IMG/VR virus record: IMGVR_UViG_2718218453_000005
DNA length: 48,452 nucleotides
From: a virus
Lineage: Duplodnaviria; Heunggongvirae; Uroviricota; Caudoviricetes
Direction: 5' to 3' (one strand)
Of the stretch, positions 32,923 through 33,048 are shown one piece after another. Both the position numbers and the translations under genes were made by a program. Position 1 is the first letter of the stretch; the number at the start of each line of letters is the position of its first letter. The notes under the pieces were generated by a model. That model was given only the letters and a program-made list of their open reading frames with translations. It searched no databases and was not told where the DNA came from.

Positions 32923-33048
32923 TCAGAGCCTCCGTCTGCCAGTTCGGATTCGTACCTCGCAGAGGTCTTTCCTCGTTACCAGTGCCGTCACTATGACGGT
33001 TAAACAGATGACGATCAGGGCGATTAACATCGCCTTTTGCTGCTTCAT
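32923..33048 (-). CDS. Hok/Gef-family type I toxin homologue, C-terminally divergent (possible pseudogene)
   Basis: my translation MKQQKAMLIALIVICLTVIVTALVTRKDLCEVRIRTGRRRL; first 36 residues as HokD/RelF as recalled, C-terminus unlike Hok proteins; short upstream ORF ends at hok ATG. Confidence 0.5.
   Translation of the reverse strand: MKQQKAMLIALIVICLTVIVTALVTRKDLCEVRIRTGRRRL

Follow-up and report, generated by a model that had tools for sequence, protein, structure and literature searches.

A 3′-decayed, probably toxin-dead hokD-type locus in the nin region of a Rac-type lambdoid prophage

Introduction

Decayed hok loci are textbook knowledge. In Escherichia coli K-12, hokA, hokC, and hokE are disrupted by IS elements and hokD is rearranged, and reports of such chromosomal decay go back to Pedersen and Gerdes 1999 (as cited in PMC12214031 and PMC5630033). 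The hok/mok/sok loci of the hokD/hokW class are, moreover, enriched in prophages (bioRxiv 10.1101/2025.08.07.668861).

In the hok/mok/sok system of plasmid R1, killing depends on a stable full-length mRNA that is closed by pairing between its tac and fbi elements; 3′-end processing of this mRNA then yields a form protected by a 3′ stem-loop (PMC9841398). Mutations in the 3′-UTR stem of R1 hok remove the active, truncated (processed) mRNA (PMC9841398). At the protein level, Hok proteins share a conserved Tyr/Cys46 position, as well as the TACG context of its codon (PMC5630033, PMC12214031). The TACG motif is a TadA editing site that is kept in all Hok genes (PMC5630033), and Cys46 is important in HokB, its equivalent in HokC, HokD, and HokE being the editable Tyr (PMC12214031, PMC5630033).

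Here, we describe a hok locus of a Rac-type lambdoid prophage, situated in its early-right ("nin") region. It is carried on a 48,452-nt stretch of Caudoviricetes DNA (IMG/VR record IMGVR_UViG_2718218453_000005), the whole of which is referred to below as the window.

Results and Discussion

Relationship to described hok systems

The closest relatives of the locus are the hokD (relF) loci (HokD WP_000813254.1; strains JNEC-KY180, 54214, and 55989), to which the −10 element, the leader, the Sok region, and codons 1–37 are 96–100% identical. A short mok reading frame is shared with the hokD loci of JNEC-KY180 and 54214, and the genomic slot is also that of hokD loci, between a DUF977 replication module with variable cargo and a DUF1367-DUF1364-DUF1133 nin/Q module. 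Unlike intact hokD, the window lacks the last 14 HokD residues (QTEVAVFTAYEPEE) together with the strong 3′ stem-loop, the fbi element, and the terminator, in place of which it carries a decayed tail and a DUF1971 cassette.

A second resemblance is to hokW of the Stx2 phage 933W (AF125520; EDL933 prophage WP_000813258.1), with which the residual tail (FVDY..SE) and the remnant of the 3′ UTR share 81–84% identity. In each locus, hok is followed directly by a cargo gene, which is YgiW/YdeI-like in 933W and of the DUF1971 family in the window. The hokW locus of 933W is, however, intact, with a 51-aa product, an in-frame 70-codon mokW, fbi, and a terminator, whereas the window has a short, out-of-frame mok and a destroyed tail.

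With plasmid R1, the locus shares the architecture of the 5′ half, with a tac-ended leader, a predicted mok-dependent translation of hok, and a putative cis-antisense Sok over the mok start. It differs from R1 in having no fbi element and only a degraded form of the 3′ stem-loop, and its peptide has a much higher identity with HokD than with R1 Hok. Like the inactivated hok loci of K-12, the locus has been disabled by a rearrangement or insertion beside the gene. K-12 hokD is nonetheless its mirror image, as that locus has kept the full toxin and lost the upstream mok/sok half; with the mok/sok region of the window as the query, only 33 nt at the start of the K-12 hokD CDS match.

A hokD reading frame that departs from the family after codon 37

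A first-pass annotation of the window had proposed a Hok/Gef gene on the minus strand, and the ORF translates exactly as described there:

32923..33048, minus strand: truncated hok CDS of 41 codons (translation MKQQKAMLIALIVICLTVIVTALVTRKDLCEVRIRTGRRRL)

The 41-aa peptide matches the Pfam family HOK_GEF (PF01848) with E = 3.2e-16 and 59.1 bits (cutoff 22), and where other genomes contain this locus, RefSeq lists the ORF under WP_001445775.1 ("Hok/Gef family protein"). An NCBIfam search is uninformative here, with intact HokD scoring below the curated cutoffs as the truncated peptide does. Residues 1–37 are identical to those of intact HokD (WP_000813254.1, 51 aa), so that the match to HokD noted earlier is real and extends over 37 residues, not 36. 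The N-terminal hallmarks of the family are present, namely, the basic residues, the TM helix, the C..T pair, and the R/K-x-x-L-C-E motif, and both the TM helix and RKDLCE are 100% conserved relative to intact alleles.

Beyond this point, the peptide is no longer Hok-like. Codons 38–41 read RRRL and are followed by a TGA stop, a stretch that corresponds to scrambled sequence between a −1 and a −2 deletion. The HOK_GEF match covers model positions 1–34 of 42 and leaves the last eight profile positions unmatched, and the peptide ends in RTGRRRL where Hok/Gef proteins have their periplasmic C-terminal segment (..E-V/L-A-x-F-x-A/D-Y/C-E..), including Tyr(TACG)/Cys46. The replacement of the conserved tail by a non-Hok C terminus, as first described, is thus borne out.

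The tripeptide QTE of the lost tail had been noticed in another frame and attributed to an indel. This frame reads ..WQTEALIRRLLI*, and the switch into it stems from the loss of one nucleotide just past codon 37 (GGC-CAG to GG-CAG). The deletion is therefore real, but it is not alone: nucleotide alignment to hok loci, which the first-pass annotation had recommended for locating indels, leaves the Hok relationship clear and places four indels and a nonsense change in the tail.

The 5′ half: promoter, leader, and mok

Upstream of the truncated CDS, the minus strand carries the following elements:

33223..33251, minus strand: hok promoter with −35 TTGGCG (33251–33246), a 17-nt spacer, and −10 TAGAAT (33228–33223)
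33046..33216, minus strand: hok mRNA leader with a tac 5′ end (GGGUGCUUGAGG), the mok translation initiation region, and the Sok target
33045..33104, minus strand: short mok ORF of 19 codons (MRHIEISLLRTERSRRSRL), the TGA of which overlaps the hok ATG (AUGA)

In a consensus scan of 32700–33500, the hok promoter is the sole sigma-70–like site, and its −10 hexamer and downstream sequence are conserved in every intact hokD/hokW locus aligned. From this arrangement, we infer a hok transcription start near 33216, a position that coincides with the first base of a match to the Rfam family RF01794 ("sok"). The match spans the 171-nt leader and the full model (1–157), with 101.3 bits (gathering score 59) and E = 8e-23, and gives the window the leader structure of a hok/mok/sok locus. 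The segment from the promoter to the mok ATG is 96–99% identical to intact hokD alleles. RF01794 is named "sok antitoxin," yet it matches the hok-sense strand from the 5′ end of the mRNA to the hok AUG. What this model detects here is the hok leader and not the antisense Sok RNA, a point that calls for caution with automated annotations.

The upstream ORF ending at the hok ATG had been likened to mok, and its start codon is indeed homologous to the mok starts of mokD, mokW, and mokC. In 55989, MLI121, 933W, and K-12 hokC, mok is an in-frame extension of hok of 69–70 codons, and in the window, it has been shortened to 19 codons by a −2/+1 indel pair. We considered whether this short, frame-shifted mok was part of the decay and rejected the idea, because 1501 E. 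coli records contain the same 101-nt mok/sok segment with an identity of at least 99% and because an intact 51-aa HokD accompanied by the same short mok was verified in two of them (JNEC-KY180 and 54214). Among the matches listed for this segment, most carry an annotated hokD. As arranged, the short frame would deliver ribosomes to the hok start. In R1, translation of mok need only reach the hok start region (PMC9841398), and the overlap between the mok TGA and the hok ATG is hence compatible with translational coupling.

The antisense Sok gene

On the opposite strand, two further elements can be placed over the mok start and next to it:

33098..33166, plus strand: putative Sok antisense RNA gene of ~69 nt, with a single-stranded 5′ tail, a long hairpin, and a GGGGCUUUU tail
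33062..33091, plus strand: putative Sok promoter with TTGACC (33062–33067), an 18-nt spacer, and TAATCT (33086–33091)

The putative Sok gene was mapped by homology to two anchors. The annotated sokC of K-12 begins 9 nt inside mokC on the opposite strand, and the annotated sokW of 933W, which is 71 nt long, begins 9 nt inside mokW, likewise on the opposite strand. The antisense strand of the window folds with −28.7 kcal/mol (z = −5.4), and 0 of 200 shuffled sequences are as stable. The putative promoter occupies the position that TTGCCT-17-TAACCT has ahead of the annotated start of sokW. With 8/12 matches, it fell below the threshold of the consensus promoter scan (9/12) and was not flagged, and its assignment is therefore one of homology only. 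Of the Sok-like promoter and fold-back elements that the first-pass annotation had suggested looking for upstream of hok, a hairpin and U-rich tail occupy the homologous Sok position, and the promoter is a candidate by homology.

The segment at 33092..33112 (minus strand), which surrounds the mok start and has complementarity to the single-stranded 5′ tail of Sok, is the most variable part of the otherwise near-identical hokD/hokW leaders, with four versions in four alleles, including indels. Judged from these alignments, the variability looks like diversification of Sok-target specificity between co-resident copies.

The 3′ half: a decayed tail without fbi or terminator

Past codon 35, the character of the locus changes abruptly. 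Alignments to intact alleles define the following region and the lesions within it:

32872..32943, minus strand: decayed hokW-like tail and degraded 3′ stem-loop
after 32938, minus strand: tail lesion 1, −1, GGC-CAG to GG-CAG
within 32872..32943, minus strand: tail lesion 2, an 8-nt stretch scrambled to 6 nt (−2)
within 32872..32943, minus strand: tail lesion 3, TACGAA>TACTAA (GAA>TAA), which removes the TadA TACG motif and creates a stop in the ancestral frame
within 32872..32943, minus strand: tail lesion 4, −3
within 32872..32943, minus strand: tail lesion 5, −2 inside the 3′ stem-loop

Codons 1–35 are 98–100% identical to intact alleles and free of indels. Over the rest of the homologous stretch, which starts at codon 36 (32943..32872), identity is 72–74% to hokD and 81% to hokW, with four indels, the fourth of which was counted by eye from the alignments. 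Since the −1 and −2 deletions are only 13 nt apart, fragments of the ancestral, hokW-type tail remain visible in frame 0 past the stop, outside the ORF, where the sequence still reads ..RRRL*FVDY*SE*. Mending the first deletion alone would not, to judge by these frames, return the Hok tail. Rescue by frameshifting or recoding was considered and ruled out, given that the +1 frame reads QTEALIRRLLI* and that the ancestral tail itself contains the TAA.

The damage extends into the 3′ UTR. The GC-rich 3′ stem-loop has a folding energy of −13.0 kcal/mol in the window, with a different pairing, compared with −22.2 kcal/mol in hokD and −17.7 kcal/mol in hokW, and homology is lost completely ~50 nt past the stop, after CCACGCC (~32872). 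Three intact loci (55989, MLI121, and EDL933) contain the fbi element (CCTCAACGCACCC), but a search found it neither in the window, where up to two errors were allowed, nor in strain 7/2, which has the same allele. In keeping with this, the 5′/3′ duplex of an intact locus reaches −33.2 kcal/mol, which none of 300 shuffles equals, whereas the best such duplex in the window reaches −22.5 kcal/mol and is equaled by 26 of 300 shuffles and by 20% of natural 300-nt chunks. A replacement fbi near 32806–32780, which this −22.5 kcal/mol duplex would represent, was therefore dismissed as being within chance. The minimum free energy structure of the intact transcript pairs nt 1–12 with nt 375–387, in agreement with the hok paradigm; the 5′ end of the window transcript folds locally, with no 5′–3′ closure.

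A terminator scan between hok and the DUF1971 gene returned no terminator-like site. A hairpin and T-run at ~32839–32817 was examined as a substitute terminator and rejected, with −5.8 kcal/mol, z = −0.26, and no flag in the terminator scan. Of the elements that make up a hok/mok/sok locus, the window thus has neither the fbi element nor the 3′ stem-loop/terminator.

The DUF1971 cassette and the origin of the mosaic

Other DNA takes the place of the missing 3′ end, as delimited by blastn, Pfam, and GC profile:

31999..32871, no strand assigned: low-GC cassette in place of the hok 3′ end (fbi and terminator)
32487..32840, plus strand: DUF1971 gene, convergent to hok (Pfam DUF1971, E = 3e-26)

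In a blastn comparison with JNEC-KY180, the intact comparator, homology runs from 33228 to 32929 and resumes at 31998, which means that ~930 nt of the window replace ~140 nt of JNEC-KY180. The replaced ~140 nt comprise the last 12 codons, the stem-loop, fbi, and the terminator, and their ~930-nt replacement comprises the decayed tail, the convergent DUF1971 gene, and ~490 nt of low-GC DNA (31999..32486), which is noncoding, with 28–34% GC and only short ORFs (<45 aa). JNEC-KY180 has the same short-mok 5′ half, followed by an intact hokD and then directly by the DUF1367-DUF1364-DUF1133 module that is also found in the window. The 3′ end of the cassette has 89–91% matches to genes annotated as DUF1971 or TehB family elsewhere on E. 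coli chromosomes, and the DUF1971 (TehB family-like) cassette downstream of hok behaves like a moron.

The residual tail is closest to hokW of Stx phage 933W, which makes the locus a recombinant mosaic and not a single-indel mutant. Carriers differ in the leader (the window compared with strain 7/2 and phage 666R9) and in the cargo on the upstream side of hok, but their tails are invariant. A search of phage and plasmid collections for an intact precursor of the odd tail found none, yielding only hokW/hokD (79–84%) besides the identical truncated allele. Given the sharp step in identity at codons 35–37 and the hokW-like tail, we infer that the locus originated by recombination within the hok CDS. 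Homologous recombination inside this conserved stretch would have joined a healthy hokD 5′ half to a tail that had already decayed, and this old tail would travel with the DUF1971 cargo cassette.

Distribution of the truncated allele

By megablast, hok-like DNA is present in 4958 of 5426 complete E. coli genomes, the matches including annotated hokD loci, and genomes that carry the truncated allele have two to three hok-like places each. The junction between tail and DUF1971 cassette is at least 99% identical in 103 of the 5426 (~2%). Three complete E. coli genomes are 100% identical to the window over 651 nt, with the ORF annotated as WP_001445775.1, and the exact 41-aa sequence occurs on at least 1000 contigs, including Escherichia marmotae. 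The tail segment 32860–32960 is also 100% identical in three isolated phages (vB_EcoS-666R9, 673R7, and 613R10). The truncated allele is therefore already known, through its RefSeq accession and public annotation.

Functional state of the locus

The first-pass annotation had offered two readings, a decayed hok locus or a truncated variant that is still membrane-active. The first is favored by the several independent tail lesions, by the loss of fbi, 3′ stem-loop, and terminator, and by the published requirement for the Hok C terminus. With an N-terminal part, a leader, and a mok frame that are those of a hok locus, and with a C-terminal segment, fbi, and stem-loop/terminator that are not, the locus is best filed as a hok remnant. 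In our assessment, it is probably a toxin-dead, 3′-decayed hokD-type remnant in which the promoter, the leader, and Sok may still be active.

Several lines of published evidence bear on the missing tail. For R1 hok, PMC9841398 reports that 18 of 20 possible premature stops abolish toxicity and that M46I, Y48N, a C-terminal FLAG tag, and loss of the stop codon each do the same. R1 Hok truncated by a stop is non-toxic in a separate study (bioRxiv 10.1101/2025.08.07.668861), as is Gef/HokC with its C-terminal (periplasmic) domain swapped for PhoA (PMC8509063). As this work on R1 Hok and Gef/HokC indicates that toxicity requires the periplasmic tail, a toxin-dead remnant is the most likely state of the window locus. 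Against this reading, single alanine substitutions at conserved positions of the tail (E41A and E49A) leave R1 Hok toxicity in place (bioRxiv 10.1101/2025.08.07.668861), and PGAP gives the ORF no pseudogene flag.

The altered tail may also affect insertion into the membrane. The net charge of the extracytoplasmic tail is −2 in HokD and +5 in the window, and this shift, by the positive-inside rule, disfavors the normal N-in/C-out insertion, as far as topology can be predicted from charge.

In the remnant as we envisage it, the hok promoter would still fire. Lacking fbi, 3′ stem-loop, and terminator, the transcript would be unable to adopt the stable, inert storage form behind delayed killing; it would instead read into antisense DUF1971 sequence and would probably be short-lived and open to Sok/RNase III. 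Any peptide made from it would be without the periplasmic domain, including the editable Tyr/Cys46 partner of Cys30. The net outcome would be a toxin-dead remnant beside which Sok is possibly still expressed. The frequency of the allele (~2%) and its carriage by viable phages are compatible with neutrality and also with some retained use, and the pristine 5′ half could reflect selection instead of recent recombination.

Several unrelated type I toxins are hardly more than a TM helix. By analogy with these helix-only toxins, overproduction of the 41-aa peptide, in which the Hok helix is intact, could still damage membranes, and the truncated peptide might on this basis be an attenuated but still active membrane toxin, part of a working type I module that does without the fbi-dependent storage form. 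The full conservation of the TM helix and RKDLCE speaks for such activity, as do the 41 codons over which the ORF has stayed open, its annotation as a protein, the occurrence of the same short mok beside intact hokD in many genomes, and a mok stop/hok start overlap that would suit coupling where, as in R1, mok need only reach the hok start (PMC9841398). We nevertheless regard an active toxin as unlikely. The tail has suffered several independent inactivating lesions, a pattern typical of neutral decay, and the 3′ stem-loop, mutation of which abolishes the active mRNA in R1 (PMC9841398), is degraded. Premature stops and C-terminal changes abolish the toxicity of R1 Hok (PMC9841398; bioRxiv 10.1101/2025.08.07.668861), Gef with a replaced C-terminal domain is non-toxic (PMC8509063), and the shift of the external tail charge from −2 to +5 would argue against a normal topology.

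A further alternative, to which we give even less credence, is that the toxin is dead and the locus serves as a donor of Sok (or as a decoy hok leader), with Sok neutralizing hokD mRNAs of the same Sok-target allele that other prophages or incoming elements carry. The phage would then bring with it a means of anti-addiction or immunity, by which the lysogen, or in superinfection the phage, is protected and which has spread together with the DUF1971 cargo cassette. The same Sok-target allele occurs in ~1,400 other complete E. coli genome records, the predicted Sok gene and its hairpin are intact, and the 101-nt Sok/mok segment that is at least 99% identical in 1501 records accompanies an annotated hokD in most of those listed. 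With two to three hok-like places per carrier genome, targets could be at hand; anti-addiction by chromosomal hok loci has been raised in discussion (bioRxiv 10.1101/2025.08.07.668861), and the conservation of the 5′ half while the 3′ half decays would fit such a role. That conservation, however, is explained equally well by recent recombination with intact copies, and it is the leader that differs between carriers while the tail stays invariant. Intact hokD loci, moreover, already bring their own Sok, and the Sok promoter of the window is a homology-based assignment that the consensus scan did not flag.

Finally, a sequencing or assembly artefact of an intact hokD can be set aside: losing one base from a short G/C run (GGCC) is an error of a typical kind, but the tail/DUF1971 junction recurs at no less than 99% identity in 103 independently assembled complete genomes, the tail is unchanged in three phage genomes, the exact protein is found on at least 1000 contigs, and one error would not account for four indels plus a nonsense change with another gene lying downstream.

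With the toxin-dead remnant as the preferred reading, WP_001445775.1 is best regarded as a hokD-type remnant and not as a functional toxin, and surveys of Hok should count it as degenerate. One such survey discards as degenerate any CDS of <40 aa and any peptide of which no more than 40 residues align in conserved columns (bioRxiv 10.1101/2025.08.07.668861), a limit that the 41-aa peptide just passes or fails. The locus also exemplifies how the mosaicism of lambdoid phages can break a type I toxin-antitoxin locus exactly at the point of cargo insertion, and how either half of a hok locus can disappear without the other, the 3′ half here and the 5′ half in K-12 hokD. Beyond annotation hygiene, its importance is small, the point of some interest being a possible trans role of Sok beside a dead toxin.

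Prophage surroundings

At 46718..46896 (minus strand), the window contains a full-length match to the Rfam family RF02694, RalA, with 225 bits (gathering score 170). RalA is the antitoxin sRNA of the ralR/ralA toxin-antitoxin pair of the Rac prophage, and its match marks the window as a Rac-type prophage with a second RNA-antitoxin system. In NDM1, a genome that is 100% identical, trkG follows the lysis genes downstream of the locus, at a position corresponding to approximately 26188..27663 (minus strand) of the window.

Directly upstream of hok, a 1210-aa ORF (33696..37328, minus strand) encodes a YobI-like P-loop NTPase (Pfam PF20693, E = 8e-123). It also matches the PADLOC defense family "Tmn" (E = 1e-66), has a GC content of 26–39%, and is listed in RefSeq as "hypothetical protein." In other prophages, the slot between DUF977 and hok holds NUDIX and HAD genes, DUF5677, KilA-N, or sce7726 with a "beta family protein," and it looks like a variable hotspot for defense or other cargo.

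Just upstream of the hok promoter lies a GTG-initiated ORF (33259..33351, minus strand) for a very hydrophobic peptide of 30 aa, MVLVLKCALAIAAVMAIYCLAVVLMDRLSD, for which a Pfam search gave no match. The ORF overlaps two terminator-like hairpins (33294..33324, minus strand). It could be a small membrane protein, or the segment could merely be a terminator that insulates hok from upstream transcription. Its DNA is conserved upstream of the intact hokD in 55989 and MLI121.
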